Origin: an uncultured bacterium
Lineage (GTDB): Bacteria > Verrucomicrobiota > Kiritimatiellia > CAIKKV01
NCBI GenBank assembly: GCA_938038445.1
Contig: CALHRZ010000010.1
Location: forward strand, 16,757 to 80,756
Length of the DNA: 64,000 bases
Direction of reading: 5' to 3'
In this document: in pieces, positions 1 to 16,564 of the stretch
Layout: the number at the start of each line of letters is the position of its first letter
Position numbering within the stretch: the first letter of the stretch is position 1
Notes under the pieces: model-generated
What the model was told of the DNA's origin: nothing
Seen by the model: the letters and a program-made list of their open reading frames with translations, nothing else
Database searches by the model: none
Program-made: the position numbers and the translations under genes

Positions 1-307
1 ATTTTTGGGCGCATCATTGCCGCCCATGTCAACGTCAAGGCCGATTTGCGGCGGCTTTACACGGTCGCATCGGGGCATTGTCTTGCGGGCGTTCGTCCGA
101 TTCCGGAAACCATGATTCGTCCTCCCCATGCGCCGCCGGATCCTTTTGAAGCAAATTCTTCCCCGTGATACTTGCTTTCGAGGAAATTCGGCGGCGGGGG
201 AAGAAGGTCTCAAGAAATCTTGCAGGTTCGTCGTGGGCTTTACCGTTTATGCCGGCCAGAGGACGGTGTGGACATGAAGTAATGCCGAACGATAGAGGGG
301 GCCGGGA

Positions 308-1771
308 TCAAGGTATTCCGGAATATGGGCGGGAGGATGCGTGGGAGTCCCGGTTGTTCGAGGGATTTCGGTTTTGAGGCGAGTAAAGCAGGGGAAGGGC
401 GGAAAAAAAGAGGAGGGCTACGGCACCGAGGCTGAGCCAGAGACCACGAAACGAACGGGCGCGGGCTTGCAGGGTCGCGGGCCGCCCCAGCGGCAGTACA
501 TAAACGGTGTTGTTGAAGGCGCCGTGAATGAGCACGGAATAGGAACCGGCTTCCACGACGGCGGGGCTTCCCCAGCGATTCTCCCCTTTATTGATTTTGT
601 CCCAGATCGGTCGTCCGGTGTAGTAGGAGGTGACGATGCGGCCGGTTCGTGCATCCAGCAAATGCAGGTGGTTATCCAGAGCGGCGATTAACAAATGGGG
701 GCGTCCCTCGAGGTGGAAGAACGCTGGGGCAGAGTAGATTTCTCCCCCCAGTGCGCGGCGCCAGATCAAGTGGCCGTCGGCGGCGCGGAGGGCATAGACG
801 TTGTAATCGTGTGAGCCGGCGAATACGACCGGTTCGCCCTCCACGACTCCGATGCAGGCGGAGTTATCGAACCAGTTTCCGGCCATTCGTTTCCATCGTT
901 CGCGGCCGGTGGCGGCATCGAGGGCGATGAGGTTACCGAACTTGGATCCCAGGACGAGAACCGGTTTGTCGTCCTGGTCCCAGACGGCGGGCGCTCCCAT
1001 GACCTCGTGGGGCATCTGGTAAGTCCAACGCAACTGGGGGGTGGCGGTTTCGACTGTGAAACATTGCAGCAAGCCTTTTCGCGCGCAGATTGCGACGTGT
1101 GGGGTGCCGTGAATTCGGAACCCGATCGGTTCGCTGACATAGCCGCGGCTGACTTCGACACGCGCCCGGAGGGTACCGTCTTCGGGATGGAGCACATACA
1201 GCCATCCGCGTTGTTCATTGCGGGCGATCGAGCGATCGTACACAAATCCCCCCACGTAGAGGCGTTCTTCGAACAGCAGCGGTGCGGTCATTTCCGCTTC
1301 TCCGAGCGTTGGCCTTGCCGGCTCTAGTTCTCGAGTCCAGAGTGTTGTACCGGTTTGGGCATCCAGAGCGTAGAGGGTTCGGTCGTTGGAAGCCAGAAAG
1401 ACTGCGAGGCGTCCGCGAATATAACCCACAGCGGGGGGTGCGACGATTTCGGCGTTGGTCATCCGCCGCCAGAGGATGCGGGTGTTGACAAGGTCGAGAG
1501 CGTGGAGGGTTTGGTCATATCCCCCCAGGAAGGCTATGGGTCGGCCGTCGAGCATTGCGAGCGCGGGGGATGCCCAGACCGTCTGGCCGGGTTTGTAGCG
1601 TTGTTTTGCTTTCCATTCGTAATGCCATTCGGGGATTTCGATGGGATGGTTCGACTGCATGGTTGCGTCTCCTGCAGCGGACCGGCGTGCGGCGGGCCAT
1701 GGGTCTTCGGGGCTTGCCGGAAGAACGGTAGGGATGCAGAGGGCGATCGGGAGGAGGAGGGTCAACCGCAT
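308..1771 (-). CDS. Secreted PQQ-like beta-propeller repeat protein (BamB/PQQ_2-type repeats)
   Basis: The translation has repeated motifs (YALDAQTGTTLWTRELE, LYVLHPEDGTLRARVEV, VYALRAADGHLIWRRALGG) typical of PQQ-enzyme-like beta-propeller blades. The start was trimmed to the ATG at 1771 (MRLTLLLPIALCIP..., signal-peptide-like); this overlaps the upstream gene stop (1762-1764) by 10 nt. It is the last gene of the minus-strand operon. Confidence 0.6.
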   Translation of the reverse strand: MRLTLLLPIALCIPTVLPASPEDPWPAARRSAAGDATMQSNHPIEIPEWHYEWKAKQRYKPGQTVWASPALAMLDGRPIAFLGGYDQTLHALDLVNTRILWRRMTNAEIVAPPAVGYIRGRLAVFLASNDRTLYALDAQTGTTLWTRELEPARPTLGEAEMTAPLLFEERLYVGGFVYDRSIARNEQRGWLYVLHPEDGTLRARVEVSRGYVSEPIGFRIHGTPHVAICARKGLLQCFTVETATPQLRWTYQMPHEVMGAPAVWDQDDKPVLVLGSKFGNLIALDAATGRERWKRMAGNWFDNSACIGVVEGEPVVFAGSHDYNVYALRAADGHLIWRRALGGEIYSAPAFFHLEGRPHLLIAALDNHLHLLDARTGRIVTSYYTGRPIWDKINKGENRWGSPAVVEAGSYSVLIHGAFNNTVYVLPLGRPATLQARARSFRGLWLSLGAVALLFFSALPLLYSPQNRNPSNNRDSHASSRPYSGIP

Positions 1772-2826
1772 GGGCGATTCCAATCGTCCACGACCGTCAA
1801 AGCGTTTTGGGGGCAGCGATCGACGCATTTCATGCAGAAATGGCATTCGGCGGGTTCGATATGACCGTTGTGAACGGATTCCACACCGCAGACGCGGTCG
1901 CAAGCGCCGCAGGAGACGCATCGGGAGGGGTCATGCACGATGGTTCGGACGCTGCATCGCCCCGCCCATGCGATTGCAGCCCGCCAGGGGCAGAGGTACC
2001 GGCACCAGACGTGGGGGATCAGAAGAGCGGCGAGAATGACCATGCCGGTTGAAAGCAGCGAGGCGGGGTCGTACACCTTGGCGAAGCCGAGATGGACGGG
2101 AGAGGTCACACGGAGGCTGAGGAAGGATGCGGCGGTTACCAAGCCGAAAGAGACCCAGCGGAGCCTGCGTAAGGGCCGGTCCCAGCGGGCCGTGTTCCAC
2201 GTGACGAGCAGCGTGATCAGAACGAGGACTTCGGACCAATAGATGGAGGCATCTTCGATAAAAAAGAGCCGGGTAACACTGAGGCGGATCATCCAGAGAA
2301 TGAACACGGCCATCAAGACGAGGGCGCCGGCGAAGGCGAGACGGGAGAACGGCCATCCCTGCTCTTTACGCCGGAGGTTCCATCGAGCCGTGAGGGTCCC
2401 GATCCACTCTTGGAGTGCTCCGGTGGGGCAAATCCAGCCGCAGAAGGCGGGTCCGAACAGCATGGAGGTGGTCAGGATGACGGCGGGAACGGAGCAGTAG
2501 TACAGGGCGACGATATTCTCTCGGCCGATTTCGGTTAGTCCGCGATGAAAGTTGCGGATCATGCCGAAGACGCCGAGACAGGTGAAGACCACGAAGATGA
2601 AGACGATCACACCGAGGATCTGGTTGAACATCCGCCATCGCTGGCGATGGCGGGGGGGGAAGAGAATGGGAAGGATAGCGAGAAGGCCGAGTGCCAGGAT
2701 GGTGAGGAGTTCGACGTAACTGCCCTCCATGCCGAGGAGTGCGCGTTCGACGATTTTGATATTGCCCGTTGCGTCTGAGAGGAAGGTTTCCAGCCGATCG
2801 AATGCCGAAGAGGGACCTGTGTTCAT
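1762..2826 (-). CDS. Membrane polyferredoxin, NapH/MauN/CcoG-like 4Fe-4S binding protein
   Basis: Multiple TM segments carry CGWICP and CRYLCP motifs. The C-terminus has two ferredoxin-type clusters (CVSCGACDRVCG ... CHFCMKCVDRCP). The start at ATG 2826 overlaps the upstream ABC ATPase stop (ATGA at 2823-2827). Confidence 0.6.
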   Translation of the reverse strand: MNTGPSSAFDRLETFLSDATGNIKIVERALLGMEGSYVELLTILALGLLAILPILFPPRHRQRWRMFNQILGVIVFIFVVFTCLGVFGMIRNFHRGLTEIGRENIVALYYCSVPAVILTTSMLFGPAFCGWICPTGALQEWIGTLTARWNLRRKEQGWPFSRLAFAGALVLMAVFILWMIRLSVTRLFFIEDASIYWSEVLVLITLLVTWNTARWDRPLRRLRWVSFGLVTAASFLSLRVTSPVHLGFAKVYDPASLLSTGMVILAALLIPHVWCRYLCPWRAAIAWAGRCSVRTIVHDPSRCVSCGACDRVCGVESVHNGHIEPAECHFCMKCVDRCPQNALTVVDDWNRPCG

Positions 2827-3827
2827 GGAGCAGTCTCCTGGCCGAAAAGGTGGAGGTGTTGGGGGTCCCAGCGAACGGAGACGCGGGCGCCCGAAACCAC
2901 GTAATCGGGAAGGGGTTTTCCGAGGTGGGCGATCCATCGCCGATTGGAACCAAGCGAAAGTTCGACTTCATGGAAGGCACCGCGGTCGCGGCAGGCCAGG
3001 ATGGTGGCAAGGCATCCTGTTTGGGGGTTGGGAGAGTCCAGAAGGAGATGTTCCGGGCGGAGCATGGCCAAGGTATCGTTCGGGCAACCGAATTCCCGGG
3101 CGGGGCAAACGTTTTCCGCGCCGAGGAATCGGGCGATTTCGGGGTTGGCCGGGTGGTGGAAGAGTTCCTCGACTGGGGCGAGCTGCCCGAGGCGGCCGTG
3201 AAGGAGAACGCCGCACAGACCGTTAAGGGTCCAAGCTTCCTCGCGGTCGTGTGTAACATGGATGGTGGCGGTTCCCAATTCTTCGTGAACCAGGGTCAGG
3301 CATTCGTGAAGTTCGCGTCGCGAGTTGGGGTCCAACATGCCGAGGGGTTCGTCGAGGAGGAGGAGTTGGGGCTCGATTGCGAGGGCGCGCGCGAGGGCGA
3401 GTCGTCGGCCTTCGCCGCCGGAGAGGAGGCCGGCGCGGTAATGGGCACGGTGCGTGAGGCGGAAAAGGTCGAGAAAGCGGCGGATTCGGGCAAGGCGGTC
3501 GGTTTGGGAGAGGGGGAGGAAGCGGAGTCCGAACGCGATATTTTCCTGCACGGTGAGATGGGGAAAGAGATCATTGGCCTGGGCGACGTAGGCCATCTGA
3601 CGCTGTTCCGGCGGAAGCCGTCCGATGGGGCGGCCGTCGAGTCGGATGGCGGTAGGAGGGGAGCGATAGACCCCGGCGAGGAAGCGGAGCAGGGTCGTCT
3701 TTCCGCAGCCGGAGGGGCCGAGCAATACGAGCCATGCTCGGGCCGGCAGTTCGAAGGAGATGGGACCGAAATGAAATTCGCCCAGTTGTGCTTCCAGTTC
3801 GTGCACTTCCAGGAGGGGGACGCTCAT
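2823..3827 (-). CDS. ABC transporter ATP-binding protein, molybdate/tungstate/sulfate type with C-terminal TOBE-like domain
   Basis: Walker A GPSGCGKTT, signature LSGGEGRRLALARAL and Walker B LLLLDEP are present. The C-terminal ~100 aa resemble a TOBE/ModE-type oxoanion-binding domain. The start ATG (3825-3827) overlaps the permease stop (3824-3826) as ATGA. Confidence 0.7.
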   Translation of the reverse strand: MSVPLLEVHELEAQLGEFHFGPISFELPARAWLVLLGPSGCGKTTLLRFLAGVYRSPPTAIRLDGRPIGRLPPEQRQMAYVAQANDLFPHLTVQENIAFGLRFLPLSQTDRLARIRRFLDLFRLTHRAHYRAGLLSGGEGRRLALARALAIEPQLLLLDEPLGMLDPNSRRELHECLTLVHEELGTATIHVTHDREEAWTLNGLCGVLLHGRLGQLAPVEELFHHPANPEIARFLGAENVCPAREFGCPNDTLAMLRPEHLLLDSPNPQTGCLATILACRDRGAFHEVELSLGSNRRWIAHLGKPLPDYVVSGARVSVRWDPQHLHLFGQETAP

Positions 3828-5194
3828 GGGGAGTCTATTCTCCAGTCATGCAAGGTGGGGATACGGCGGGCGGCGTATTGGAGCAGAAAGAAAAGGGCAA
3901 GTGAGGCGATCAGGAGAAGGGTCACGAAAGGGGTTGTTTCCACCAGTCCTTGCCGTTCGAAACGATAGAAGATTGCGATGGGAGCCACGGGAGGATCGGC
4001 GGTCATGAAGTAGACGGCGCCGAATTCCCCTGCGGCCCGCGCCCAGGCGAGAACGGCGGCAAGGAATAGACCGCGGCGGGCAAGGGGAAGGACGAGAAAC
4101 CGGAACGCCCCCCAGGCATTGGCCCCGAGGTGGCGGGCGGCCAGTTCGAGGTCGGGTGGGACGGCATCGAAAGCCGCAATCGCGGGTTTCACCAGAAAGG
4201 GAAACGCGGTGAACATCTGGGCGATTACGATCCCGGCGACGCTTCCGTCCAGGGCGACACCCCATCGTGATTCGAGCCAAGCGCCGAGGGGTTGGGTCCG
4301 GCTGAAAACGGAGAGGAGGGCGATTCCGGCGGCGGACTGGGGAATGATGATGGGGACATCCATGAGGGCGAGGACGAGGGTTTTGCCGCGAAACGTCAGG
4401 CGGCTGAGGCCGTATGCGAGTGGAATGCCTAGGAGGGCAAGGCCGAGTGTGGAGAGGCAGGCGGTTCCGGCGGTCAGGAGAATCGCGTGGCGGGTTTCTG
4501 CCCGTTCCAATTCGACGGCGAGAGTTGCGGTGGACTGGCTGAGGAGGAGGACCAGGACGGGGAGAAGGACCAGGGCCAACGCGGCAAGTCCGATTCCCAG
4601 GCCGAGCAGAGCGGCGGGATTAGAGGGATGGGCGTGGGCGGTCAGTATGGAGCGGAGAAGAAGGGCCAATAGGATTGCGGATTCCCAGGCGTAGGGCTGG
4701 AAAAGGGTAAAGGCGAGGACGAGGATCCAGAACCATGCGAGGAGGCGGAAATCGCGTCCGGTAGCGCACAACCCCATTACGGCAAGGAGAAAAAGCGGTT
4801 CCGCATGAGGCAGACGGACAATGAAGAGATAAAAGAGCGCCAGGTAGCTCAGGGCGAAAACTATTCCGTAGCGTAGGGGGCGCTGTTCGAAAATGTTCCA
4901 AGCCACATAGACCGTGAGGAGGCTGACGAGAAGCAAGGCGCCACTGGTCAGCGAATCGGGCGCCAACCGATGACCGACAAGAGCATGGGCGGCATTCAGG
5001 AACAGTACGGCGCTTCCCATGAGTTGTGGGATCTGACGGCGTGCCATCCCAACGGACAAAAGGCCGTTGAGCGCAAGGAGTCCGAGGCTGAACGGTTCGA
5101 GGGGATCGAGCCGGCCGGAGGTTCCCAGAGCCAAATGGCCCAGAAGGTGAGCGCCGAGCAATAGGAAAGGTAGCCATGAAAGAAAAGAATTCAT
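3824..5194 (-). CDS. ABC transporter permease (ModB/CysTW/TupB-type) fused to an extra N-terminal ~200-aa polytopic membrane domain
   Basis: The C-terminal half has the classic EAA-loop region (AARHLGANAWGAFRFLVLPLARRGLFLAAVLAWARAAGEFGA). The N-terminal ~200 aa are additional hydrophobic helices. A strong RBS (GGAGGGGA) precedes the ATG at 5194. Confidence 0.65.
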   Translation of the reverse strand: MNSFLSWLPFLLLGAHLLGHLALGTSGRLDPLEPFSLGLLALNGLLSVGMARRQIPQLMGSAVLFLNAAHALVGHRLAPDSLTSGALLLVSLLTVYVAWNIFEQRPLRYGIVFALSYLALFYLFIVRLPHAEPLFLLAVMGLCATGRDFRLLAWFWILVLAFTLFQPYAWESAILLALLLRSILTAHAHPSNPAALLGLGIGLAALALVLLPVLVLLLSQSTATLAVELERAETRHAILLTAGTACLSTLGLALLGIPLAYGLSRLTFRGKTLVLALMDVPIIIPQSAAGIALLSVFSRTQPLGAWLESRWGVALDGSVAGIVIAQMFTAFPFLVKPAIAAFDAVPPDLELAARHLGANAWGAFRFLVLPLARRGLFLAAVLAWARAAGEFGAVYFMTADPPVAPIAIFYRFERQGLVETTPFVTLLLIASLALFFLLQYAARRIPTLHDWRIDSP

Positions 5195-6070
5195 TTACGG
5201 TTCCCCTCCGTAGGCGGCGATATCCGCGAATTGGGCGTAATCTTGGCGGCTGCCAAAAAAGACGGGCTTCAGCCGGCGGAATCCTCGATCGGTCCATTCC
5301 ACGCGGTCGGGGCTGATGAGGTAGCGCAAAAGGGATTCTGCTTCGCGGGGATGGGCGCTATCGGGGGGAATGGTGGCCGCGAATCGGATGGGGGCGGTTT
5401 CGTCCGATTCGGTTGAGAAGTTGATGGCGGAGTCGAGTGCGATGAACCGAATTTCATGCATCAGGGCAGCGGAGCGGAACAGGAAGGCATAATCTACATC
5501 GCCGGTTTTCAGACGGGCGGCCACCGTGCCGATATCGTCGGCGACTAGGAAGGTTTTTTCGCGCAATTCTTCTGCAAGCCCGGGATAGCCTTTTTGTTCC
5601 ATTCGTTTCCACAAGCGGAGTGTATAAAGGCCGGCGGGGCTTTGAATTTCGTCGGTTCGGGCCAGTCGGATACCGGGGGCGCGGAGTGCGGCGACCCAAT
5701 CACGTTCTGCCAGATCGGGATTGGGGGCGCGAAGACCGACGGCCAGGACCATTTCGTCGGAAAGCCAGACGAGATGCCAGCGGAAACGGCCGCGGCCCGT
5801 GGTAGCGAAAAAGGAGGGATCGGCCGACAGGAGGAGATCGCACGGGCGGCCGAGTTCCGTATAGCGACGGATGAGATTTCCGCTGCTGCCGGCTTCGGCG
5901 CGGATGCGGAGGCCGAGGTGTTGGGCCGCTGTGGGATAGAGATCTCGCAAGACAGGCTCGAAAACGGCAGCGTGGAACACTTGCAGAGTGGGAGGGGGTG
6001 GGGTACGGGAACAGCCGGGACACAGAACGGCCGAAACGATCCAAAAGAGGAGCAGTTGGAATCCTTTCAT
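5195..6070 (-). CDS. Periplasmic substrate-binding protein, molybdate/tungstate (ModA/WtpA-like) family
   Basis: The start was trimmed to the ATG at 6070 (MKGFQLLLFWIVSAV..., signal peptide). VFHAA..., EAGSSGNLIRRYTELG and LLLSADPSFF resemble the WtpA/ModA-type PBP family. The start overlaps the upstream stop (ATGA at 6067-6070). Confidence 0.6.
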   Translation of the reverse strand: MKGFQLLLFWIVSAVLCPGCSRTPPPPTLQVFHAAVFEPVLRDLYPTAAQHLGLRIRAEAGSSGNLIRRYTELGRPCDLLLSADPSFFATTGRGRFRWHLVWLSDEMVLAVGLRAPNPDLAERDWVAALRAPGIRLARTDEIQSPAGLYTLRLWKRMEQKGYPGLAEELREKTFLVADDIGTVAARLKTGDVDYAFLFRSAALMHEIRFIALDSAINFSTESDETAPIRFAATIPPDSAHPREAESLLRYLISPDRVEWTDRGFRRLKPVFFGSRQDYAQFADIAAYGGEP

Positions 6071-6867
6071 GGGAGGGGCGAACGTTCCTTGGGGTTTTGG
6101 AACACGGCCAGTGCGGCTCCCAGGGCGACGACGGTCTGGGGCGAAGGTGGGACCCAGATGCGGACGCCGAGATTTTCCTCCAGTGTATCGAGCAACGCGC
6201 GGTTGAGGGCGCCGCCGCCGACGAAGGCGAGAATTTCGCGGGGACCGATTCGGCGCACCATCGCGGCGATGCGATCTGCGATGGCCTGATGGGCGGCGGC
6301 TGCGATATCGGCCTTTGCGACATTCCGGGCGAGGAGTGAGACGACTTCGCTTTCCGCGAAGACGGCGCACGTGGAGTTCATATGGATGGGGACGGTGGAG
6401 GAGCGAGCGGCCTGAATAAATTCCGGCATTGAAAGATCGAGCTTTCGTGCCAGCATTTCAAGGAAACGACCTGTTCCAGCCGCGCATTTGTCGTTCATGG
6501 CAAAATCCTGCACGTCGCCCGTGTCGGCCAGAGCAATGACTTTGGTATCCTGGCCGCCGAGGTCAAGGACGGTTCGGATGGGGCCATGCGGGGAACCGAG
6601 AAATCGGGCACCGAGGGCCGAGGCCCGGATTTCGGTAATGATGAGATCACCCATTCCGGCTAGACGCCGACCGTACCCTGTGACGGCGACGGCCCCGACG
6701 GCTTGAGGGGAGAGATTGGCCTGGGCCAATACTCCGTCCAGCACCTGGCGGGCGCTATCGGCGGGCAGGATGGCGTTTGAGAGGACGACGCCGGCGATCA
6801 GCCGGGTGCCGTCGAAGAGAACGGCTTTGCTGGTGGTGGATCCGATATCGAGCCCGGCGGCGATCAT
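6067..6867 (-). CDS. BadF/BadG/BcrA/BcrD-type ATPase (CoA-substrate-specific enzyme activase, HgdC-like)
   Basis: The N-terminus MIAAGLDIGSTTSKAVLFDG is the acetate/sugar-kinase-fold signature of HgdC/activator ATPases. The later VGGGALN motif also fits. The start overlaps the upstream stop (ATGA at 6864-6867). Confidence 0.7.
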   Translation of the reverse strand: MIAAGLDIGSTTSKAVLFDGTRLIAGVVLSNAILPADSARQVLDGVLAQANLSPQAVGAVAVTGYGRRLAGMGDLIITEIRASALGARFLGSPHGPIRTVLDLGGQDTKVIALADTGDVQDFAMNDKCAAGTGRFLEMLARKLDLSMPEFIQAARSSTVPIHMNSTCAVFAESEVVSLLARNVAKADIAAAAHQAIADRIAAMVRRIGPREILAFVGGGALNRALLDTLEENLGVRIWVPPSPQTVVALGAALAVFQNPKERSPLP

Positions 6868-8114
6868 CTCAGAGTCTCCAAAAAGGCTTCGACCCGTACT
6901 CGGAGCTGTTCGGTGTCTTCGAGACTGTAGTCGGTCCGAAGGGTGAGGAGAGGGATGCCACGGGCCTTGAGGACCCGTTCCAGCCGACCGGTTTCGAGGT
7001 CGAAGGGTTGACAGAGGCGGAGAGCGTAATTGACGACGCCGTGGGCGTTGGAGCGTTCGACGAGATCAAGGATTCGATTGAAACGGTTGATGGAGTCAGT
7101 GAAACAAGGGCAAGGGGATCCGAAGACCGATCGGGCCGCGAGCGCTCGGAGGAGTGCATTCCAGCCGGATTCATCGGTGAGGGCGGGATCCGCGCAGGAT
7201 TGGATACCGGTACAGAGCGTATCGGCTACGAGGTCGGCGCCGGATTCTTCGAGGACTTGGATGGGTTTGAAATTGGGCCAGACGATGGGGGCGCCGGTCA
7301 AAATCAGTCGGGGGCGGAGCCGTTTGCGTTCCGGTTGGAAGGATTCGGCGTAGCGTACGGCTTTTTCGGCTTCCGGTAGCCATTCGGCAAGGGGGGTGGG
7401 AGAGAAGAGCGAAGACTGAATGATGAGGAACGCGTCCTGCAGACTCATGGATTCGGGGTGGGCGATCCGAGCCTCTTGGAGGCGGCGCGACAGGGCGGCG
7501 CGTTGGTTTGAATCATTGATCGCCAGTTGCAAGGCATCTCGTCGGATCCGGCGGCCGGTTCGTCTTGCGATGAAATCGGCAAGGCGATTATATTCATCGG
7601 TCATCGCGTGGGCGTAACGAGTCGGATCGGGGTTGGGAGGGAGCGACAGACTGAAGACCGTCTTGAAATCGGCCAACCATTCGATGAGTTTTCGTTTGGG
7701 GTCACAGGAGGCGGGTACGACCCAGGCGTTGCAGGAATTGGGGAGAGGGTTTCGGCTGGACACGAGGCCGAGCGTTGCCTTGGCGAGTGGGCAGATATCG
7801 CCGACGACGAGTTCTTCACCGGCCAGGAGTGCGGCGCTGCTGCCACAATCGAAGCGGAGGGTTTCGGCGTTGACGGCCCAGAAAAGTTCCGGAGGGGCGA
7901 AATTACAGAGGAGGCCGAACCGGCGAGTTTGAGGGGGAGAAAGGGAGGGGTTGAGGAGTTGTTGTTCGAACCAGGCGATGTTGGGTGGGCGCCGAGGGAT
8001 CTCGTGGAGTCGGCGGCGTTGTTCTTCCAGAACCGCGTGTTGTTTACGGCGGAGGGAAAGCCGGTCGGACCAGATTGGGGGAAGTTGATAGGGATGGTCG
8101 GGTGGGGACGTCAT
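6864..8114 (-). CDS. 2-hydroxyacyl-CoA dehydratase family protein (HgdB/BcrC/double-cubane-cluster-protein-like)
   Basis: The start was trimmed to ATG 8114 (MTSPPDHPYQ...), preceded by a GGAG RBS and overlapping the upstream polyferredoxin stop (ATGA at 8111-8114). Conserved Cys residues (DTLCTGIQSCADP; CPCF) and the overall pattern resemble PF06050 family members that pair with HgdC-like activators. Confidence 0.5.
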   Translation of the reverse strand: MTSPPDHPYQLPPIWSDRLSLRRKQHAVLEEQRRRLHEIPRRPPNIAWFEQQLLNPSLSPPQTRRFGLLCNFAPPELFWAVNAETLRFDCGSSAALLAGEELVVGDICPLAKATLGLVSSRNPLPNSCNAWVVPASCDPKRKLIEWLADFKTVFSLSLPPNPDPTRYAHAMTDEYNRLADFIARRTGRRIRRDALQLAINDSNQRAALSRRLQEARIAHPESMSLQDAFLIIQSSLFSPTPLAEWLPEAEKAVRYAESFQPERKRLRPRLILTGAPIVWPNFKPIQVLEESGADLVADTLCTGIQSCADPALTDESGWNALLRALAARSVFGSPCPCFTDSINRFNRILDLVERSNAHGVVNYALRLCQPFDLETGRLERVLKARGIPLLTLRTDYSLEDTEQLRVRVEAFLETLR

Positions 8115-9616
8115 GGCCACTGGCTCCGAGCGATGGGGCGGCCGGCAAACTCGGCGCGCAAGCAATCGTTTTGGGGGCACCATTCCACGCATTTGAGACA
8201 GTAGAGGCAGGCGGGTTGGGCGACATCTTCTGTTTTCATTTCGGAAGCGACGGTTGAGATATCCATGGGGCAGACTTCGCGACAAATTCCGCAGCGATTG
8301 CAGCGACGAGGTTGTTTGCGGAGGGAGAAGAGTCCCCCTCGGTTGAAGGGGGTAGCGAGCAATCCCATCGGGCAAAAACGGCAGAAAAAGCGGCGCGAGG
8401 CAGCGAAGGAAACGAGGAAAAAAAGCGTGAGAAGAGGGGCGACGATGAGGAAGAAGCCTCCGAGCCATTCCCGTCCTGGCAGGGGAGGGTATGCGGTGAG
8501 TCCGCGGGTTGCGACGGGGCATAGTTGTTGGGCTGGGCAGATTTTGCAGAAGGGGTAGAGAGGAATTTTACATCCGAGGAAGCGGCCATCGGCGTCCAAT
8601 CGTGGGATTGCGGCGGCGAGAAGGAGGCTGAAAGAACCGAAGGAGAGGCCGGCGCCCCAGGCGATCCTTTGACTTCGGGGTGAGGGTTTCCAATGGGGGA
8701 GTCGGAGAAGACGGCGGACGAGGTCGAATCCATCGCCCAAGGTTGCAAGGGGGCAAATCCATCCACACCACCAGCGGCCGGCAAGGAAGAGGGCGATGGT
8801 CACCGAGGCGATTGCTCCCAGAATGATGGCGAGGAGGCCGGTTTCATTCCGTGCGTTGCGGACGATCGTCCGAAAATCGAATTGGAAGAGACGTTGGAGA
8901 AGTTCCATGGGGCAGCCTTGGACGTAGCCGCCGTCTGCGCTGAATCGGCAAGGCGCGGACGGGATGTACGTGAGGCGATCGGGATCGTGAAGCGCGGGAA
9001 TCGTTTCAGAGAAGGCCACGACGTCGTTGCGTAATTGAGCCCGGCGGGCCATGGCGTGTTGCCAATCCGAAGGAGAACGGCGGAAAAGAAAGCCTCCGCC
9101 GAGGAGAAGAATTAGTGCGGTCAAACGGACAGAGGTGCGGAAGGCACGGAGGGGAACGAAGGGGTGGAGGAGAATGAGAATGGAGACGAGGCCGAGGAAC
9201 AGAGGGATAGGAGCGGAAGGCGCTCCCACGAAGCCTCCATCGGGAGGACGGCTCTGTTGCTGCGTTCCGACGTGGAGAATGAAACCGAGGAGAAGGAAGC
9301 AGGGCCAAACGAGAAAAATGCGGTATGCCGGGCGACCGTGCAGAAGAAGCGCAGGCAGGATGAGAAGAAAGAAGGCAGGGACGAGAGGATGCTGAAGGCG
9401 ATAAAGCCAGCGGGACCACCCGGGGTGAGTTTGGGCGAACCCATGGACCATAACGGACAAGAGGAAAACCCAGACAGGCACCATCCATCGAAGAAGGGGT
9501 GAGGAAGAACGGGAGGACGCCTTGAGCGCAAGGGAAGTTGCGAGGGCTACCAGGAGAGATTCCAGGGGGCGGAACCAAAATGCACCGCTTTGAAGAATGG
9601 CATTCAGCGGGTCCAT
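8111..9616 (-). CDS. Membrane polyferredoxin, NapH/MauN-like 4Fe-4S binding protein (second copy)
   Basis: The polytopic membrane protein carries a CGWICPLATLGD motif. Its C-terminus has ferredoxin motifs (CNRCGICREVCP ... CLYCLKCVEWCP). Confidence 0.6.
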   Translation of the reverse strand: MDPLNAILQSGAFWFRPLESLLVALATSLALKASSRSSSPLLRWMVPVWVFLLSVMVHGFAQTHPGWSRWLYRLQHPLVPAFFLLILPALLLHGRPAYRIFLVWPCFLLLGFILHVGTQQQSRPPDGGFVGAPSAPIPLFLGLVSILILLHPFVPLRAFRTSVRLTALILLLGGGFLFRRSPSDWQHAMARRAQLRNDVVAFSETIPALHDPDRLTYIPSAPCRFSADGGYVQGCPMELLQRLFQFDFRTIVRNARNETGLLAIILGAIASVTIALFLAGRWWCGWICPLATLGDGFDLVRRLLRLPHWKPSPRSQRIAWGAGLSFGSFSLLLAAAIPRLDADGRFLGCKIPLYPFCKICPAQQLCPVATRGLTAYPPLPGREWLGGFFLIVAPLLTLFFLVSFAASRRFFCRFCPMGLLATPFNRGGLFSLRKQPRRCNRCGICREVCPMDISTVASEMKTEDVAQPACLYCLKCVEWCPQNDCLRAEFAGRPIARSQWP

Positions 9617-10242
9617 ATCTTATTGATCGCAAGGAGTGCAAACACAACGGCCATGGGGAGGAGATACCACCAGAAATAATAATCGGCGCGGCTGTCCGCG
9701 ATGATGGAAATGGTGCCGAGCCGGGTTTCCTCGCCCGATGGTTCCGAACGGGTCAATGAGAAACGGCGGACTTTTTGAGCGGAAACCGGCGAGAAGGACA
9801 ATCGAGCAACGGTCGGATTGGAGCGTTGAAGAGCGTTCCCCCATTCAATGCGGAGGGGTCCCGCGTCGAGAGATTCCGGTGGCAATTCAAGGGCGAACGT
9901 CAGGCCGACGATTTCCCCGAATTCGCGGGTGAGGGTATTGGTTTCAATTACGAGGGGCAGAGGGCGGCCGAGTCCATCCGTTGCACCGATCCGATCGAGG
10001 GATCCGACAGATAGATGGGGAGGTTGGAAGCGGCCGTACACGATCCAACCCTGAGGGTTATGAGGAACGAACGAGGGGGTCTCCGACAGAGGGATTTCTT
10101 CGGGAGGTTCGGAGGGGGGCGGGTCAAGTTCCAAGAGGTGGATCGAGATTGACGTAGCCGATGTGTCGGCGGGACAAGATGGGCAGGAAAAGAAGAAAAG
10201 GAACGGGAGAGCGCACAGGAGGGCAAGACGGGGCATGGGCAT
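9604..10242 (-). CDS. Hypothetical secreted/membrane-anchored protein
   Basis: It has an N-terminal signal-like segment (MPMPRLALLCALPFLFFFSCPSCPA) and a C-terminal TM anchor (YYFWWYLLPMAVVFALLAINKIW). It overlaps the polyferredoxin start by 13 nt, so it is co-transcribed. Confidence 0.35.
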   Translation of the reverse strand: MPMPRLALLCALPFLFFFSCPSCPADTSATSISIHLLELDPPPSEPPEEIPLSETPSFVPHNPQGWIVYGRFQPPHLSVGSLDRIGATDGLGRPLPLVIETNTLTREFGEIVGLTFALELPPESLDAGPLRIEWGNALQRSNPTVARLSFSPVSAQKVRRFSLTRSEPSGEETRLGTISIIADSRADYYFWWYLLPMAVVFALLAINKIWTR

Positions 10243-10248
10243 ACGGCG

Positions 10249-11187
10249 TCAATCCGGAAGAAGCAGGCGGGCGAACACCAGCGGGTTTTGGTAGGAGGCT
10301 CCGTTTCCGAGCCAGTAGGAGAGGTGTGCGTCGCGTTGACGGGCCACATTGAGGAGGAAGGACTTTTGGATACCGAGGGGCTGAAGGGGAAGGGTCAGCT
10401 CGATGCCGTCGGGTCCTTTGACGGCCCGGGCTCCGGCGGGTGCGTTCTGAAGATCGGCGTTGGCCAGGTTAAGTAGGATCGAAGTCGGGGGAAGGTCCAT
10501 GTCGGAGCTAAGCAAGAGGGTCAGGACATCCGATTCCGCACTGGCGGTTTCGGGTGTGGGGATCATGGCGTAGAGCGTTTCGGCGTCTGCGGCGAGGCGG
10601 AGTCGGGTGCCGCAATTGGAGGGTTGCACCTCCACGTAGCGGCGGCTTTTGGAATCTTGGGAAAAGCTGGTGCAGAGCCAGGCATCGGCCCATTCGTCGC
10701 GGGTGATGGAGCCGTCAATTCGAAGCGAAGGGACTTTGCGGGGAAGCGTGGAGACGTTTATGGCGCGATCGAGTTCGACGGTTTTGAATTCCATGCGAGG
10801 TTGGCGGCCGTTGAAGAGGCGTAAAGCGATTTCGTAGCGGCCATCAGGCACTCCGGGTTTTCGTTTGAGGGTGACCGTGAAATACTCTTTTTTACCGCCG
10901 TGGCGGGTGGTTTGGAGTTGGGGGAAGGACCGCCATTCGGGAGAGGGAGTGACGGTGCTTTCGAAGTCGGGGCTAATCACTTCGAGCCGGATATCGGCGA
11001 TCGCCCGGTCCATGGTATTGAGGAGATGAACTCGGAAGGAAGCTTCCTGATGGATCCGGAGTTGTCCGTCGCGGATATCGACCTTGACGGCCAGATTGTC
11101 GCGGGCTTGTTCGAAAACATCGTTGCAGAGGTGGGACTGAACGTTCGCGAGGGGGAGGAAGAGTACGAGAAGGACGATTCGCTTCAT
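10249..11187 (-). CDS. Hypothetical secreted protein, possible CBM9/DOMON-like C-terminal domain
   Basis: The start was trimmed to ATG 11187 (MKRIVLLVLFLPLANV, signal peptide) with an AAGGA RBS. The motif IDGSITRDEWADAW resembles the CBM9/DOMON-like fold. There is a 7-nt gap to the next gene. Confidence 0.35.
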   Translation of the reverse strand: MKRIVLLVLFLPLANVQSHLCNDVFEQARDNLAVKVDIRDGQLRIHQEASFRVHLLNTMDRAIADIRLEVISPDFESTVTPSPEWRSFPQLQTTRHGGKKEYFTVTLKRKPGVPDGRYEIALRLFNGRQPRMEFKTVELDRAINVSTLPRKVPSLRIDGSITRDEWADAWLCTSFSQDSKSRRYVEVQPSNCGTRLRLAADAETLYAMIPTPETASAESDVLTLLLSSDMDLPPTSILLNLANADLQNAPAGARAVKGPDGIELTLPLQPLGIQKSFLLNVARQRDAHLSYWLGNGASYQNPLVFARLLLPD

Positions 11188-11259
11188 CGAGAGGATTCCT
11201 TGCACAGAGGGGCTTTTATTTATCAGTCTACCGAAAGAGGCGGCGGAAGTCAGGAACAA

Positions 11260-12621
11260 TTATTCATAAAACACATCCCCTTGCTCATTGAGGCGGACGT
11301 GGTAACGTCGCAGAAGATCGGGACCGGGTTCGAAGGGATCGCGGAGTCGGACGAGACGGGTATGAAGCAGGTGGTGCAATTCGGCGATTTGCTCTGGCGG
11401 GGCAGTGGGGAGGAGGTTATGGAGTTGAAAGGGGTCGTGTTGCACATCGTAGAGGAACCACGGGCCATCCGGACGTTCGGCATAGGCGTAGCGGGCGGTT
11501 CGCAAGCCACGGAATTCGAGCACGCGGGGGGGGCTCCGGCGGAGCTCGTGGAAGGGGCAGTAACAGGAGAGGAGGGCGGGTGTATTCGGTTCGTCGGGGG
11601 TGGTGCCAGTAAGGAGGGGGGCGAGGTTACGGCCTTCGGTTTGGGGCGGGATAGGGAGGGCCAAGAGACCGAGAAGGGTCGGCATGATATCCGGGGCGTC
11701 AATTGGGAACTGAACGGTACGGGGTTTGGCACCGAGTTTTTCCGTCCAGCGCAGGAGGAAGGGAACGCGGATGGACTCTTCGAAAGGCCACTGTTTTCTT
11801 AAGAGCCCCTGGGCGCCGAGCATATCGCCGTGATCGGAGGTAAAGACGACGAGGGTGTGATCAGCGATCCCTTGTTCCTCCAGGGTATCGAGAAGGCGGC
11901 CGAAGCATGCATCGAGCGCCGCGCCGTGGGCGTAGTAGCCCGCGAGGTCGTTGCGGGCTATTTCGGCCGTTTCCAGAGGCACGTTGGGGGAGAGTTGGAT
12001 TTTTTCGGGAGAAAAAAGCGATTGATATTGTTCGGGGGCGGTGTGGTAGGGGTTATGAGGGGGACCCCAGGAAAGAAAGAGGGCAAAAGGGCGGGGAGCA
12101 TGCGCGCGGGAGGCGATTTCGGCGCAGGCCAGGTCGGTTTGAGCCTTGGCGTCATATCCTTTCCAGAGAAGGGGTTCAGGGGCATCGGCATAGTACAGGG
12201 AATGGTTGTAGTCGTGGGTGCATTCGAAGCCGCGCCAGATCCGGAAGCCGAGGCGATCTTCGGGAGGGACGTAACGGGTTCTTCCGCCGCCGTGGAGATG
12301 CCATTTGCCGATCCAAAGCGTATCGTAATCCGCGGCGTTGAGATGGTCGGCCAGCGAGCCGCCGGGCACATGTCGGAGAGGCTGATCGTTGACGATGATC
12401 CCGTGGGCAAGGGGGTATCGGCCGGTGAGGAGAGAGGCGCGGTATGGGCTGCAGACCGGACAACCGCTCACCGCGTTGGGAAAAGCGATTGCTTGTGCGG
12501 CGAAGGCATCGGTGCGGGGCGTTTTCGCATTTGGATCTCCGGCGTATCCGAAGGCTTGGGCGCGCCATTGGTCGGAGAAGACGAAGAGGATATGCGGGCG
12601 ACGAAATGCAACATGTGGCAT
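11260..12621 (-). CDS. Sulfatase (arylsulfatase family)
   Basis: HILFVFSDQW ... CPVCSPYRASLLTGRYP carries the formylglycine C-x-P-x-R motif. The start was taken at ATG 12621. No obvious signal peptide is present. Confidence 0.7.
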   Translation of the reverse strand: MPHVAFRRPHILFVFSDQWRAQAFGYAGDPNAKTPRTDAFAAQAIAFPNAVSGCPVCSPYRASLLTGRYPLAHGIIVNDQPLRHVPGGSLADHLNAADYDTLWIGKWHLHGGGRTRYVPPEDRLGFRIWRGFECTHDYNHSLYYADAPEPLLWKGYDAKAQTDLACAEIASRAHAPRPFALFLSWGPPHNPYHTAPEQYQSLFSPEKIQLSPNVPLETAEIARNDLAGYYAHGAALDACFGRLLDTLEEQGIADHTLVVFTSDHGDMLGAQGLLRKQWPFEESIRVPFLLRWTEKLGAKPRTVQFPIDAPDIMPTLLGLLALPIPPQTEGRNLAPLLTGTTPDEPNTPALLSCYCPFHELRRSPPRVLEFRGLRTARYAYAERPDGPWFLYDVQHDPFQLHNLLPTAPPEQIAELHHLLHTRLVRLRDPFEPGPDLLRRYHVRLNEQGDVFYE

Positions 12622-12849
12622 GAACGTATTCTGCCAAAAAGGGGGCAGAGAACGGAAGAAAAACGTCGGAGTAAGACTTGCGCTGGCGTCTAACACCTCC
12701 GAGGGGATTTCTTTGAAGGGCGGGAGCAGATCAGTTGGAGTGTTGAGGGCTGGAGGGGTTGAGGGGGCGGCGTGAGGGAAGAGCGGATGCCAGCGGCGAT
12801 TGCGATGGAAGGTGGCCAAAGCGAGGAAGTCCTCATCGGCTTCGAGGCT

Positions 12850-13700
12850 TCAGAACTGGCCGGTGCGTTTGAAGCGCAGTTGGAATTGGCCGCAAGTTGA
12901 TTTCACGGCGCCGGGGCCATTGGGCTGGCCGAGACGCTTGCCTCTTTTGTTGTCCATGCGCTTCTTGTTGTCGGCGAGGTGGTTGGTTTCGTCCTGCGGG
13001 GTTTTCTTCTGCTTGGCGGTCGGGCGCGCGAGGCTGTCGCGCATCAGTTCGATGGGCTCGATGACGTCGATCGCGCCGTTCTGTTGGCGCTCCAGCCAGC
13101 GTAGCAGGGGCCGGAGCCATCGTCTGGCTTGCGCGGCATCATCGCCATAGATCGCAAGGGCGATGGTCCAGAGGTGTTGCTGGGTGGGCCAGTCGTCCAG
13201 GCGGTGCATGGCGCCCTTGAAGCGGTTCTGCGCCAGTTTCCACATCCAGATGGCCCCATCGGCCAGGAGCAGAACCGTCTGCGCCTGCAGCAGGCCGCGG
13301 AGGATCGCCTCGGTATTAAAGCTGCGCCTCGCCCAATGCCAGAGGGAGAACGCTTCCCCTTTCTGCCGTAGTAGTCGTCGAGTCGGTCCCCTGGCGGCGC
13401 GCTTCCCGATGGATCGTCGCTTGGCCCAACTGTGCTTCCCGTTGACCCGCCGCGCATTTTGCCCAGGTCGATCAGGTGCGTCTTGCCGCCCTTGTTCAAG
13501 GAGAAGTACGGCTGCTTGTTGCGCCCGCCAATCACCACCACGCTGCCGCGCATGACTACGTCAAGTCCGCTCATCTTCCGCTGGAGTTCGCGGAGCCGGG
13601 ACTTGAGGACCTGCAGGTTCTGCGGCTCCATGCGTTTTGGACTCCTCGGCATGGCTCCGCCTTTTTTCATGCGAGACGAGGCTCCTGGCATATACTCATG
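12850..13700 (-). pseudogene. Degenerate transposase-like gene (frameshifted mobile-element remnant)
   Basis: Protein-like segments are split over at least two minus-strand frames. The first has an N-terminal DUF6788-like segment (MSGLDVVMRGSVVVIGGRNKQPYFSLNKGGKTHLIDL). The other has a transposase-like core (EAFSLWHWARRSFNTEAILRGLLQAQTVLLLADGAIWMWKLAQNRF...). No intact ORF is present. An adjacent low-GC patch lies at ~13700-13860. Confidence 0.35.
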
Positions 13701-13932
13701 CAACAAAACGAGCCTCGGACGTGATATGCGCCCCGGAGGATGAAACCACCATAAAATTAGACAGAACCTCGATGGTGGTGGTAGGGTAGTAACGGGATAG
13801 TGTTTATCCTGATGGAACATGGATCAGGCCAGACAGTGAATCGGCAGCTGTGAAGACAATGTGTCGTGTATGTCTGACCCCGATGTTCCGTGCGGTGTTG
13901 GAGGTTTTTGGAACTCAATAGGGAGCACTTGC

Positions 13933-15033
13933 ATGACGGGTGAACTTCTCGGCATAGGGATGAACGCGTTGACGCGGTTGACCAACGAAAAGACTCGGTC
14001 CGTTACAGCAGAAAATGTGTATGGCGAAAAGGGAAGAGGGGGGATGGCGGAAGTATCTCAAACGCCACAAGAAGAGGTCGTCAAGATTGGGCAGCATTGG
14101 GACGGTCCCAATGCATGCGCGCGAGATCTCGGGCGGAAATGGAAGGTTCGGCCTTGTATCACTCTGCCGGCGGGAAAAGTCACTCCCTTGATGGATGTTG
14201 CGGGACCTGGCCGAATTCAGCACATTTGGATCACAGTGGATGCCAAATTCTATCGCGACCTTATTTTGCGAATCTATTGGGACGGGGAAGCCGATCCGAG
14301 CGTCGAGACGCCCTTGGGGGATTTTTTCTGCAACGGATGGAAGACGCGGGTGAACATTATGGCCATTCCGATCAACGCGAATCCTTCGGGCGGGTTCAAT
14401 TGCTATTTTCCCATGCCGTTTCGAACGCATGCGCGGATAACGATAGAGAACAGAAGTCCTAGCTCTGTTGGGGGATTCTTCTACGCGGTGAATTATGCCC
14501 AAGGTTCGGTGGGGCACGAGGAGGTCTACTTCCACGCCCAATTTCGAAGGACCAATCCATTACCCTACAAACAGGACTACGTGATTCTGGACGGCGTGAG
14601 AGGCCAGGGCCATTATGTCGGCACCTATCTGGCGTGGCAGCAAAATAACAGCGGCTGGTGGGGGGAAGGGGAGTTTAAGGTGTTTTTGGATGGCGATGAG
14701 GAGTTTCCCACGATATGTGGAACGGGGACGGAAGATTATTTCGGGGGCGCCTGGTGCTTTGGGCAAAATTACACGGCGCCGTTTCTTGGGTATCCTTTGG
14801 GATCCTGCGACGGTCGGCCCGGTAATCGGCACGGGATGTACCGGTTCCATATCTTGGATCCGATCCGTTTTGAGCAGGACATCCGGGTGACCATGCAGGC
14901 CATCGGATGGCGGAGCGAAGGGAGGTATCTTCCTTTGCAGGACGATATCGCGTCGGTCGCTTATTGGTACCAAACCGAGCCCCACGTTCCCTTTCCGCCT
15001 TTGGGCGATCGTGACGCCCTGGAAGTCATTTAG
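13933..15033 (+). CDS. DUF2961 domain protein (glycoside hydrolase family 172-like)
   Basis: The ATG at 13933 is preceded by a GGGAG RBS. Motifs such as ICGTGTEDYFGGAW and GWWGEGE are typical of DUF2961/GH172. Confidence 0.55.
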   Translation: MTGELLGIGMNALTRLTNEKTRSVTAENVYGEKGRGGMAEVSQTPQEEVVKIGQHWDGPNACARDLGRKWKVRPCITLPAGKVTPLMDVAGPGRIQHIWITVDAKFYRDLILRIYWDGEADPSVETPLGDFFCNGWKTRVNIMAIPINANPSGGFNCYFPMPFRTHARITIENRSPSSVGGFFYAVNYAQGSVGHEEVYFHAQFRRTNPLPYKQDYVILDGVRGQGHYVGTYLAWQQNNSGWWGEGEFKVFLDGDEEFPTICGTGTEDYFGGAWCFGQNYTAPFLGYPLGSCDGRPGNRHGMYRFHILDPIRFEQDIRVTMQAIGWRSEGRYLPLQDDIASVAYWYQTEPHVPFPPLGDRDALEVI

Positions 15034-15258: not shown

Positions 15259-15768
15259 ATGAATAATAAAGAAAAAAGTAATACGAGTTCTTCCGGGCTT
15301 TGCCGCTTTACCATCTGTATGCCCGAAGAACTGGCCAGACTTTTTGACGCTCTACGGCAGCGGAAGGGATTCGAAAACCGTTCTCAAGCGTTTGCCGAAC
15401 TCGTCCGCCAATGGGTGGTAGACGAGCGGGCACGGACGGGAAAAGGAACGATCGCCGGTTCGATTACGTTGGTCTACGATCATCACAAACCCGGGCTCCA
15501 GTCCCGCTTGACGGCGCTCCAGCACCGCTATGCGGGTGTCATCCTGAGCGTTTTGCACGCCCATCTGGATTCCTGTAACTGCCTGGAAATTATTGCCTTG
15601 CGCGGTGCCGCTCAACCGATTTATCGCCTGGCCGATGCCGTGGGGGCTGTCAAGGGGATCAAACACGCCCGTCTTTCGGTCACCACCGCCGGGCGGGAGT
15701 TTCGACACGGTTTTGGGCATGTATCGCGCCACTCTAATTTGCATGAACAGGACCCCCCCAAACATTGA
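15259..15768 (+). CDS. nikR: Nickel-responsive transcriptional regulator NikR (ribbon-helix-helix + ACT-like metal-binding domain)
   Basis: The RHH region (RFTICMPEELARLFDALRQRKGFENRSQAFAELV) and the high-affinity Ni-site motif (LHAHLDSCNCLEI, compare HxHLDHxNCLE) are present. It sits directly upstream of a CbiMQO-type transporter. Confidence 0.8.
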   Translation: MNNKEKSNTSSSGLCRFTICMPEELARLFDALRQRKGFENRSQAFAELVRQWVVDERARTGKGTIAGSITLVYDHHKPGLQSRLTALQHRYAGVILSVLHAHLDSCNCLEIIALRGAAQPIYRLADAVGAVKGIKHARLSVTTAGREFRHGFGHVSRHSNLHEQDPPKH

Positions 15769-15780
15769 AGGGAGAAATGC

Positions 15781-16560: not shown

Positions 16561-16564
16561 GGGG

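Follow-up and report, generated by a model that had tools for sequence, protein, structure and literature searches.

A conserved ten-gene unit associates a double-cubane-cluster protein and its ATPase with a Wtp-like importer, two membrane polyferredoxins and three exported proteins in an uncultured Kiritimatiellia bacterium

A 64,000-nucleotide stretch of DNA from an uncultured bacterium of the Kiritimatiellia (contig CALHRZ010000010.1, positions 16,757 to 80,756; here called the window) carries, on its minus strand between positions 308 and 11187, a unit of ten genes. The genes, named U1, U2 and A to H in the order of their transcription (Table 1), encode a double-cubane-cluster protein (DCCP), its ATPase, the three components of an ATP-binding cassette (ABC) importer related to the Wtp system, two membrane polyferredoxins and three exported proteins. 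Judged by genome comparison, the unit is widespread in anaerobic members of the Planctomycetota-Verrucomicrobiota-Chlamydiota (PVC) group and in candidate phyla. We propose, as a tentative reading that stops short of being probable, that it works as one envelope-spanning machine that takes up a small inorganic oxoanion and spends ATP to reduce it at very low potential.

A conserved ten-gene unit

An earlier note on this DNA had described an operon of eight minus-strand genes, A to H. All eight open reading frames (ORFs) are intact, and hidden Markov model (HMM) searches bore out both the gene order and every family assignment (PF06050, PF01869, PF13531, BPD_transp_1, ABC_tran with TOBE_2, Fer4_5 twice and PQQ_2). 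The extent had to be revised: the unit does not begin at 9616 but further upstream, with U1 and U2, which the earlier note had missed. Its tight coupling is real at the stop/start ATGA overlaps at 8111, 6864, 6067, 3824 and 2823 and at the 10-nt overlap of G and H (1762-1771), while D and E only abut, a TAA being followed directly by an ATG at 5194/5195 without overlap. U2 overlaps A by 13 nt and the gap from U1 to U2 is 6 nt. An in-frame TGA is needed in none of the ten genes, and a promoter and terminator scan of positions 1-14500 returned nothing within the unit that exceeded the shuffled expectation.

Table 1. Positions in the window of the ten genes of the unit and of the adjoining sulfatase gene
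Gene	Position	Strand	Product
U1	10249-11187	minus	312 aa, Sec-exported; Ig-like and CBM9/DOMON-like domains
U2	9604-10242	minus	212 aa, exported; N-terminal signal, conserved C-terminal membrane anchor YYxLWYLLPM
A	8111-9616	minus	501 aa, membrane polyferredoxin of the NapH/CcoG superfamily
B	6864-8114	minus	416 aa, DCCP of the HGD-D family; likely catalytic reductase
C	6067-6867	minus	266 aa, ATP-dependent electron-transfer ATPase (archerase/activase) for B
D	5195-6070	minus	291 aa, exported substrate-binding protein, divergent relative of WtpA/ModA
E	3824-5194	minus	456 aa, ABC permease; WtpB/ModB-like core and extra N-terminal domain
F	2823-3827	minus	334 aa, ABC ATPase with C-terminal TOBE_2 domain
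G	1762-2826	minus	354 aa, membrane polyferredoxin
H	308-1771	minus	487 aa, exported BamB/PQQ_2-type beta-propeller with C-terminal membrane anchor
Sulfatase	11260-12621	minus	PF00884 (1e-45); 72 nt upstream of U1

ATGA overlaps are common in compact operons and are by themselves weak evidence, and the window contains more of them outside the unit (17239-17242 and 37777-37780). It is conservation across phyla, unlike these overlaps, that marks the unit as more than a chance arrangement. A scan of one genome per species yielded 79 loci, in which gene order was determined by tblastn with eleven window proteins. About 25 loci showed the order U1-U2-A-B-C-D-E-F-G-H; they belong to Verrucomicrobiota, Kiritimatiellia, Lentisphaerae, Planctomycetota, Brocadiia and Auribacterota, and in FCPU426 the two halves are both present but arranged divergently. 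Median spacings at the nine junctions across 21 related loci all lie between -17 and +2 nt, and U2 and A overlap in 19 of 19 loci, indicating that the tight coupling is not special to this genome. The flanks behave differently: among 100 ORFs flanking the unit in 23 loci, no family occurs in more than three, suggesting that the unit is self-contained. A protein search with B recovered a subfamily at 45-71% identity from PVC bacteria and Auribacterota, and gene maps around three of these relatives showed matching neighbours, including both unannotated upstream genes.

The most informative arrangement is that of a complete 8.6-Mb Victivallales chromosome, where U1-U2-A-B lie at 2.90 Mb and C-D-E-F-(230 aa)-G-H at 8.29 Mb, 5.4 Mb apart. 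The activase that B needs has thus been inherited with the transporter half, which is, on genome comparison, the strongest single argument that the two halves cooperate. The earlier note's view of the genes as one machine is strengthened accordingly by an order and coupling that six or more phylum-level lineages share, their flanking genes not being conserved, and by a split genome that keeps the activase with the ABC, polyferredoxin and propeller half. The neighbourhood conservation for which it had proposed a search was also found, a DCCP and its activase standing beside Wtp-like genes in those about 25 loci. The extra 230-aa gene of the Victivallales locus (L085, 9304-9996), between ATPase F and polyferredoxin G, was considered as a U2 paralogue and ruled out (hhalign probability 1%). 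In another locus (L019, 12265-12522), the binding-protein gene is absent between activase and permease.

A narrower core of polyferredoxin, DCCP and activase occurs in Goldiibacteriota, Omnitrophota, Dehalococcoidia and an Aenigmarchaeote, with B at 32-40% identity. This core often has an upstream exported protein with an Ig-like domain homologous to U1 residues 44-123 (hhalign 96%). In two such loci, Goldiibacteriota-like and unclassified (L039, 2895-8281; L042, 3249-8518), the core is preceded by a secreted CarboxypepD_reg/BNR-repeat protein of about 720-740 aa and by a U1-related NPCBM_assoc (NEW3) Ig-domain protein of 311-315 aa, and in L042 only also by a PorV-like outer-membrane protein; these upstream proteins hint that, in such lineages, the core extends to the cell surface. 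Several distant loci carry a tandem or fused double activase beside the DCCP in place of a single one (L041, 11158-12703; L043, 5088-6618; L049, 7549-9132; L053, 11027-12391).

The double-cubane-cluster protein and its ATPase

B matches PF06050 at 2.2e-68 (231.8 bits), and its best NCBIfam model is that of the double-cubane reductases, NF040772, at 234.2 bits. This score lies under the cut-off of 350, suggesting that B forms a separate subfamily and is not an equivalog. In a comparison with all PDB sequences, the best matches were 7YYL and 6ENO, the Carboxydothermus hydrogenoformans DCCP (E 1e-41, residues 63-415, about 30% identity), with weaker matches to BzdN, MbdN and a dehydratase beta subunit. 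Seven cysteines of B, spaced C70-X19-C90-X17-C108-X28-C137-X163-C301-X33-C335-X32-C368, each align with a cysteine of this DCCP; six of them are fully conserved among 17 members of the subfamily, and at C90 cysteine is the consensus residue of the column. The published seven-cysteine motif of DCCPs is CX19CX18-19CX29CX166-170CX32-34CX32C (10.1101/2022.07.06.499078), and three spacers of B fall 1-3 residues below the published ranges. An additional cysteine, C128, is invariant in the B family and absent in the C. hydrogenoformans DCCP. The YjiM class of DCCPs is 33 aa shorter than the small-molecule "class I" (PMC7317905), and the length of B, 416 aa against 421-422 aa for the C. hydrogenoformans PDB chain, places it nearer the latter. 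By its HGD-D fold and seven-cysteine motif, both read from its sequence, B is a DCCP.

Each unit contains one HGD-D gene, with the activase gene adjoining it or, in one genome, in the partner locus. C matches PF01869 (6.6e-52) and scores 235 bits against TIGR00241, above the cut-off of 125.4. Its putative cluster cysteines, C128 and C167, lie within conserved KCAAGTG and STCAVF motifs, their counterparts in the reductase of the C. hydrogenoformans DCCP (DCCP-R) being C115 and C152 (PMC9351452). The reductions of small molecules that DCCPs carry out require both ATP and the partner reductase, and no physiological substrate is known in the literature (PMC9351452, PMC7317905).

The Wtp-like importer

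D, E and F combine the parts of WtpABC and ModABC, namely an SBP_bac_11 binding protein, a BPD_transp_1 permease and a TOBE-containing ATPase, and the Wtp models score highest for all three. D matches PF13531 (SBP_bac_11) at 3e-28, and archaeal WtpA/ModA were its only matches in the PDB, yet WtpA models reached only 57-63 bits against cut-offs of 243-355 (62.6 against 355). WtpB gave 165.5 bits for E against a cut-off of 340. F, with ABC_tran at 4.9e-30 and TOBE_2 at 1.7e-07, scored 219.2 bits against the WtpC cut-off of 440. The three proteins thus stand at 18-50% of the equivalog cut-offs. WtpA-type binding of tungstate or molybdate is octahedral, via two acidic residues (PMC11350598). In WtpA, a Ser and a Tyr serve in addition as hydrogen-bond donors. 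Retained in the D family are S63, the serine of AGS, and Y198, the tyrosine of IY[KR]S (26 of 28 sequences); position 191 is acidic in 24 of 28, and a D140-E141 pair is invariant. D is about 30 residues shorter than WtpA in its second lobe, and pairwise alignment passes over about 26-30 WtpA residues in the ligand region. The WtpB/ModB-like core of E spans residues ~200-456 and is preceded by a domain of about 200 aa with about five predicted transmembrane helices that WtpB and ModB lack; this domain is kept in all 28 orthologues, with the motifs APDSLTSG, NAEALFLL and QPYAWE.

These matches identify D-E-F as a type-I ABC importer of the sulfate/molybdate/tungstate group. Tungstate and molybdate are candidate anions as those of the nearest family, and an oxoanion of group 16, with selenium or sulfur, is a candidate of equal standing.

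Membrane polyferredoxins

A and G resemble NapH, MauN, NosR and CcoG in being multi-pass proteins with CX3CP after transmembrane helices and two C-terminal [4Fe-4S] motifs, but both fail the models of these families. A matches Fer4_5 (3.8e-09) and Fer4_10, with 61-63 bits for NapH models against cut-offs of 213-234, and G matches Fer4_5 at 3.5e-12; for the NapH/MauN model TIGR02163 (cut-off 213) A scored 61.6 and G 51.7 bits, which places neither in that family. The CcoG/FixG model TIGR02745 gave 20.1 bits against 316.7, and a fused Ig domain is absent. No napG, nap or mau genes occur at any surveyed locus, nor is there a Nos or cbb3 context. As classified by these models, A and G fall within the NapH/CcoG superfamily and outside each family defined in it.

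A has 19 conserved cysteines, eight of which form the two C-terminal ferredoxin motifs and four the CX3CP and CX2CP motifs. Compared with the known families of the superfamily, its N-terminal membrane region is longer, and a further six conserved cysteines, a 4-Cys motif and a Cys pair, lie in loops predicted to be periplasmic from hydropathy and NapH-type topology. A adjoins the DCCP even in distant phyla. G, which contains two CX3CP and two [4Fe-4S] motifs, is the most conserved protein of the unit (58-88% identity across phyla). A homologue of its membrane part was not found among solved structures; its charged loops, which are invariant and predicted to face the periplasm, have no solved counterpart, and the confidence of the AlphaFold2 model is lowest there. 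CcoG itself is a Fer4_5 polyferredoxin and a specific metal-ion (Cu(II)) reductase linked to a periplasmic Ig-like domain (PMC7558416). That domain is fused at the C-terminus of CcoG, whereas here a separate Ig-like protein, U1, is encoded beside A.

Exported proteins

In 35 of 35 homologues of U1, a signal peptide ending (position -1) in A, S or G is directly followed by HLCNDVF, so that with the predicted cleavage mature U1 begins His1-x-Cys3. The motif is H-[LI]-C-D in eleven more divergent homologues, and four others are without the histidine. An N-terminal histidine bared by signal-peptide cleavage is a recognised metal chelator (PMC10952591, PMC12537917). In U1 it stands on a beta-sandwich scaffold, with an Ig-like (NEW3/CARDB-like) domain coming next and then a CBM9/DOMON-like domain. 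U1 thereby resembles histidine-brace-type proteins (LPMO, CopC, YcnI, DUF4198) in its N-terminal His after the signal-peptidase site and its beta-sandwich (PMC10952591, PMC12537917), but has no sequence similarity to them, and the alignment of its family contains no second invariant His, offering instead Cys3 and several invariant Asp as partners. The DOMON-like domain was also considered as a heme-b site like that of EbdC or NxrC and was rejected, as it has no conserved Met, Lys or His. The family is small, with 168 clusters at 50% identity among 1.84 billion representatives.

Neither U1 nor U2 has a match in Pfam or NCBIfam, and a profile search with U2 against PDB sequences gave nothing at E <= 1. 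U2 begins with a signal peptide and ends in an invariant anchor, the part between them being weakly conserved, and its position between U1 and A is kept. H, with an export signal and a C-terminal anchor identified by hydropathy, matches PQQ_2 at 1.6e-28 (100 bits), and its PDB matches are BamB, archaeal PQQ-like propellers and tetrathionate hydrolase. BamB gave 95 bits against 285. The PQQ propeller of the earlier note is thus right as to PQQ_2 repeats, while the quinoprotein signature is missing (PQQ alcohol dehydrogenase model TIGR03075, 49 bits against 480); by the available tests, H is a propeller of BamB/PQQ_2 type and not a quinoprotein. The exported proteins of the unit contain no twin-arginine signal and no heme-c motif.

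A proposed mechanism and its alternatives

In the proposed machine, D would capture the anion in the periplasm and E/F would import it; C would spend ATP to push a low-potential electron into a cluster of [8Fe-9S] type in B, which would then reduce the imported species. A and G, at the membrane beside the transporter, could wire this chemistry to membrane or periplasmic parts, possibly supplying electrons; alternatively, they may act as metal or oxoanion reductases at the membrane face, as CcoG does for Cu(II). U1, U2 and H would form the periplasmic capture or docking side. A very-low-potential step is attractive because some oxoanion and chalcogen couples lie far below ferredoxin: sulfate/sulfite stands at about -0.52 V, and for Se(0)/HSe- a value near -0.7 V is commonly cited. 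Canonical DCCPs are reported to occur almost only in SelD-containing genomes (10.1101/2022.07.06.499078), and B falls outside the high-scoring DCCP set of that study.

Several observations weigh against this proposal. The proposed function is drawn from comparison of sequences and genomes, and the putative ligand class of D, an oxoanion of Mo, W, S or Se type, is assigned at the level of the family. D, E and F score below every Wtp, Mod and Cys equivalog cut-off, and in the D family the WtpA motif HAGS has become HAA[G/A] and NDDP has become N[Q/L]GP, with loss of the HAGS serine and the NDDP aspartates; the "Mo/W-type" transporter of the earlier note accordingly names the nearest family but is unproven as an identification. 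An Rfam scan of the whole window found no riboswitch, for molybdenum cofactor or other ligands, upstream of the unit, matching only two tRNAs. Pfam annotation revealed no genes for Mo/W cofactors, selenium or sulfur assimilation in the window, and none recur beside the unit elsewhere. The narrower core of distant phyla comes without the ABC importer, implying that the DCCP substrate need not be an imported anion, and the model leaves three periplasmic proteins and the metal-type His1-x-Cys3 site without a necessary role. It is this importer-free core and the unexplained His1/Cys3 site that keep us from rating the model higher.

Two other readings retain the unit as a functional whole. The importer may bring in Mo or W for a heterometal-Fe-S cluster built on the B scaffold, with B acting on some other small molecule. 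Importers embedded in operons mostly serve a metalloenzyme encoded there, as do mod genes in nif clusters and tup genes beside tungsten enzymes. WtpA, WtpB and WtpC are the nearest families of D, E and F, B is the sole cytoplasmic catalytic candidate, its family has the extra cysteine C128, and the double-cubane cluster has been called nitrogenase-related (PMC7317905). We nevertheless consider this supply of a cofactor unlikely, given that no DCCP is known with Mo or W, that B keeps all seven canonical cysteines of the [8Fe-9S] motif, that D deviates from WtpA near the binding site, and that in other phyla the core of polyferredoxin, DCCP and activase does without an importer. Similarly doubtful is a flow of electrons in the opposite direction, in which C and B would energise electrons, A and G would carry them to the periplasm, and U1, U2 and H would reduce or activate a periplasmic or surface target whose product the importer takes up, in a layout like that of nos. 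This reading gives a task to the three of ten proteins that are exported, two of them membrane-tethered, to the 4-Cys motif and Cys pair of A, to the charged loops of G and to the exposed N-terminal histidine of U1, a chelator of known type (PMC12537917, PMC10952591); an Ig-like exported protein also stays with the core in distant phyla, sometimes near PorV-like outer-membrane and large cell-surface proteins. DCCPs are known, however, only as terminal catalysts and not as relays (PMC9351452), the Fe-S domains of the NapH family are cytoplasmic, motifs for a redox cofactor in the periplasm (heme c, Tat signal, cupredoxin ligands) are absent from the unit, and the topology invoked is predicted from hydropathy alone.

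The remaining readings dissolve the unit, and we give them far less credence. The earlier note had called B and C an HgdC/HgdB-like pair, and in keeping with this Pfam assigns HGD-D to B and BcrAD_BadFG to C, and homologues are annotated as "2-hydroxyacyl-CoA dehydratase" or as BcrC/BadD/HgdB. That label holds for the families (PF06050/PF01869), but the dehydratase identity gives way to a DCCP with its archerase: dehydratases and class I reductases need two different HGD-D genes where each unit has one, the seven-cysteine motif and the best PDB matches (6ENO/7YYL) point away from them, and the specific models score far below threshold (HadC, 45 bits against 700; BcrC, 46.6 against 421; BzdN, 45.2 against 454). 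CoA-ligase, CoA-transferase and beta-oxidation genes do not recur among the flanking ORFs, and the neighbours are kept across phyla with overlapping junctions, making it very improbable that B and C perform CoA-ester chemistry of the 2-hydroxyacyl-CoA dehydratase or benzoyl-CoA reductase type beside an unrelated transporter and unrelated polyferredoxins. Still closer to untenable is a plain tungstate/molybdate transporter operon lying by chance amid unrelated redox genes. ATGA overlaps are frequent in compact, high-GC operons and recur elsewhere in the window, but chance is refuted by the identical order in about 25 loci of several phyla, by the conserved coupling and by the split genome, where the activase stays with the transporter, and is further opposed by the cluster-specific N-terminal domain of permease E.

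Relation to known systems

A description of the cluster was sought in the literature by family and Pfam names and was not found, in agreement with the earlier note, which knew of no described system of this kind; the link drawn by Haft between DCCPs and an uptake ABC transporter is a partial conceptual precedent (10.1101/2022.07.06.499078). B and C resemble the C. hydrogenoformans DCCP and DCCP-R in fold, length class, seven cysteines and the arrangement of a single catalytic subunit beside an ASKHA-type [4Fe-4S] ATPase. For that DCCP no physiological role or partner set is known (PMC7317905), whereas the B subfamily always occurs with a membrane polyferredoxin and, in most lineages, also with an ABC importer and exported proteins. 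This partner set appears to be unreported for any DCCP, and the cluster itself is apparently undescribed.

The closest parallel is the SAO locus of anaerobes, where an uptake ABC transporter is genomically linked to DCCPs and an activase, and for which a logic of import followed by reduction was proposed (10.1101/2022.07.06.499078). The unit shares with it the association of uptake transporter, DCCP and activase. It differs in transporter family (118.9 bits for the SaoA model against 360), in having neither selenocysteine sites nor the MerB-like lyase, efflux pump and DsrE-like protein of SAO, in adding two polyferredoxins, the propeller and U1/U2, and in occurring in other phyla.

An architectural analogy is offered by the nos cluster, which brings together a periplasmic beta-propeller, the polyferredoxins NosR and NosH, an ABC system and small periplasmic metal-handling proteins. 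H is not homologous to NosZ, however, the importer is binding-protein-dependent and unlike NosDFY, and the ATP-driven DCCP and archerase of this unit have no equivalent there.

Surroundings of the unit

The sulfatase gene upstream of U1 occupies this position only in the window and in a relative at 71% identity (L003), and sulfatases account for three of the 100 flanking genes; a functional tie to the unit was rejected, the neighbour being lineage-specific. Farther upstream, between the sulfatase gene and a DUF2961 gene (13861-15033, plus strand), lies a 258-aa ORF (13044-13820, minus strand) with no Pfam match and a coding-like G+C content at third codon positions of 0.68, which may be the upstream end of the transcription unit or spurious.

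A nickel/cobalt uptake operon (15259-19723), for which no link to the unit was seen, lies some 4 kb away from it on the other (plus) strand and is composed of NikR_C (15259-15768), an unannotated 259-aa gene, a DUF4198 gene (16565-17242) that overlaps the next, 147-aa gene by 4 nt, a CbiM-type membrane component (17704-18321) and an ABC ATPase (18644-19723). DUF4198 proteins are secreted, bind Ni, carry an N-terminal His and are found beside NikR_C (PMC12537917), and by this precedent the operon looks ordinary.

The rest of the window contains two URO-D-family genes, one (23153-24823, minus strand) fused to a long N-terminal region without Pfam match and the other at 57269-58393 (plus strand), and two tandem tRNA genes 27 nt apart (25180-25353, minus strand), which are the Rfam matches mentioned above. 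A 3581-aa ORF (38874-49619, plus strand) with PATR repeats and Calx-beta, DUF2341, Laminin_G_3, beta-helix and DUF1565 domains probably encodes a cell-surface adhesin-like protein; a second PATR protein is encoded at 58468-60561 and a Chlam_PMP-repeat protein at 33495-35333. In the region 36410-38808 (plus strand), a 456-aa gene without Pfam match overlaps by 4 nt a gene for an ApbE flavin transferase (37777-38808). The usual targets of ApbE are exported or membrane redox proteins, which it flavinylates, and the 456-aa product may be such a target or a partner.

Significance

Beside nitrogenase-type and corrinoid-activating systems, DCCPs are among the few enzyme classes that make super-reducing electrons with ATP. 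A DCCP subfamily tied across phyla to an importer, two polyferredoxins and three exported proteins offers a testable handle on the natural substrates of these enzymes: the ligand of the small binding protein D is directly measurable, and the genes appear to be present in at least one cultured genus, Victivallis, one of the loci (L016) stemming from a metagenome-assembled genome of Victivallis vadensis. Some parts of the unit are, in addition, absent from libraries, namely U1 with its mature His1-x-Cys3 N-terminus, U2, the extra domain of the permease and the highly conserved membrane core of G.

It is an unlikely but attractive prospect that the unit provides the first natural context to name the physiological job of a double-cubane enzyme, the ATP-driven reduction of an imported oxoanion with a reduction potential too negative for ordinary ferredoxin chemistry. 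If this were true, candidate reactions would include the formation of selenide from selenium species, the direct reduction of sulfate or of tungstate and molybdate, and the processing of thiomolybdate in sulfidic habitats. In a bolder variant, Mo or W fed into the DCCP scaffold would yield a nitrogenase-like heterometal Fe-S catalyst outside Nif, wired through the two polyferredoxins to a periplasmic His1/Cys3 protein. Should the substrate be a trace-element oxoanion, the unit would bear on the acquisition or transformation of W, Mo or Se by fermentative PVC bacteria that live in guts and sulfidic sediments.

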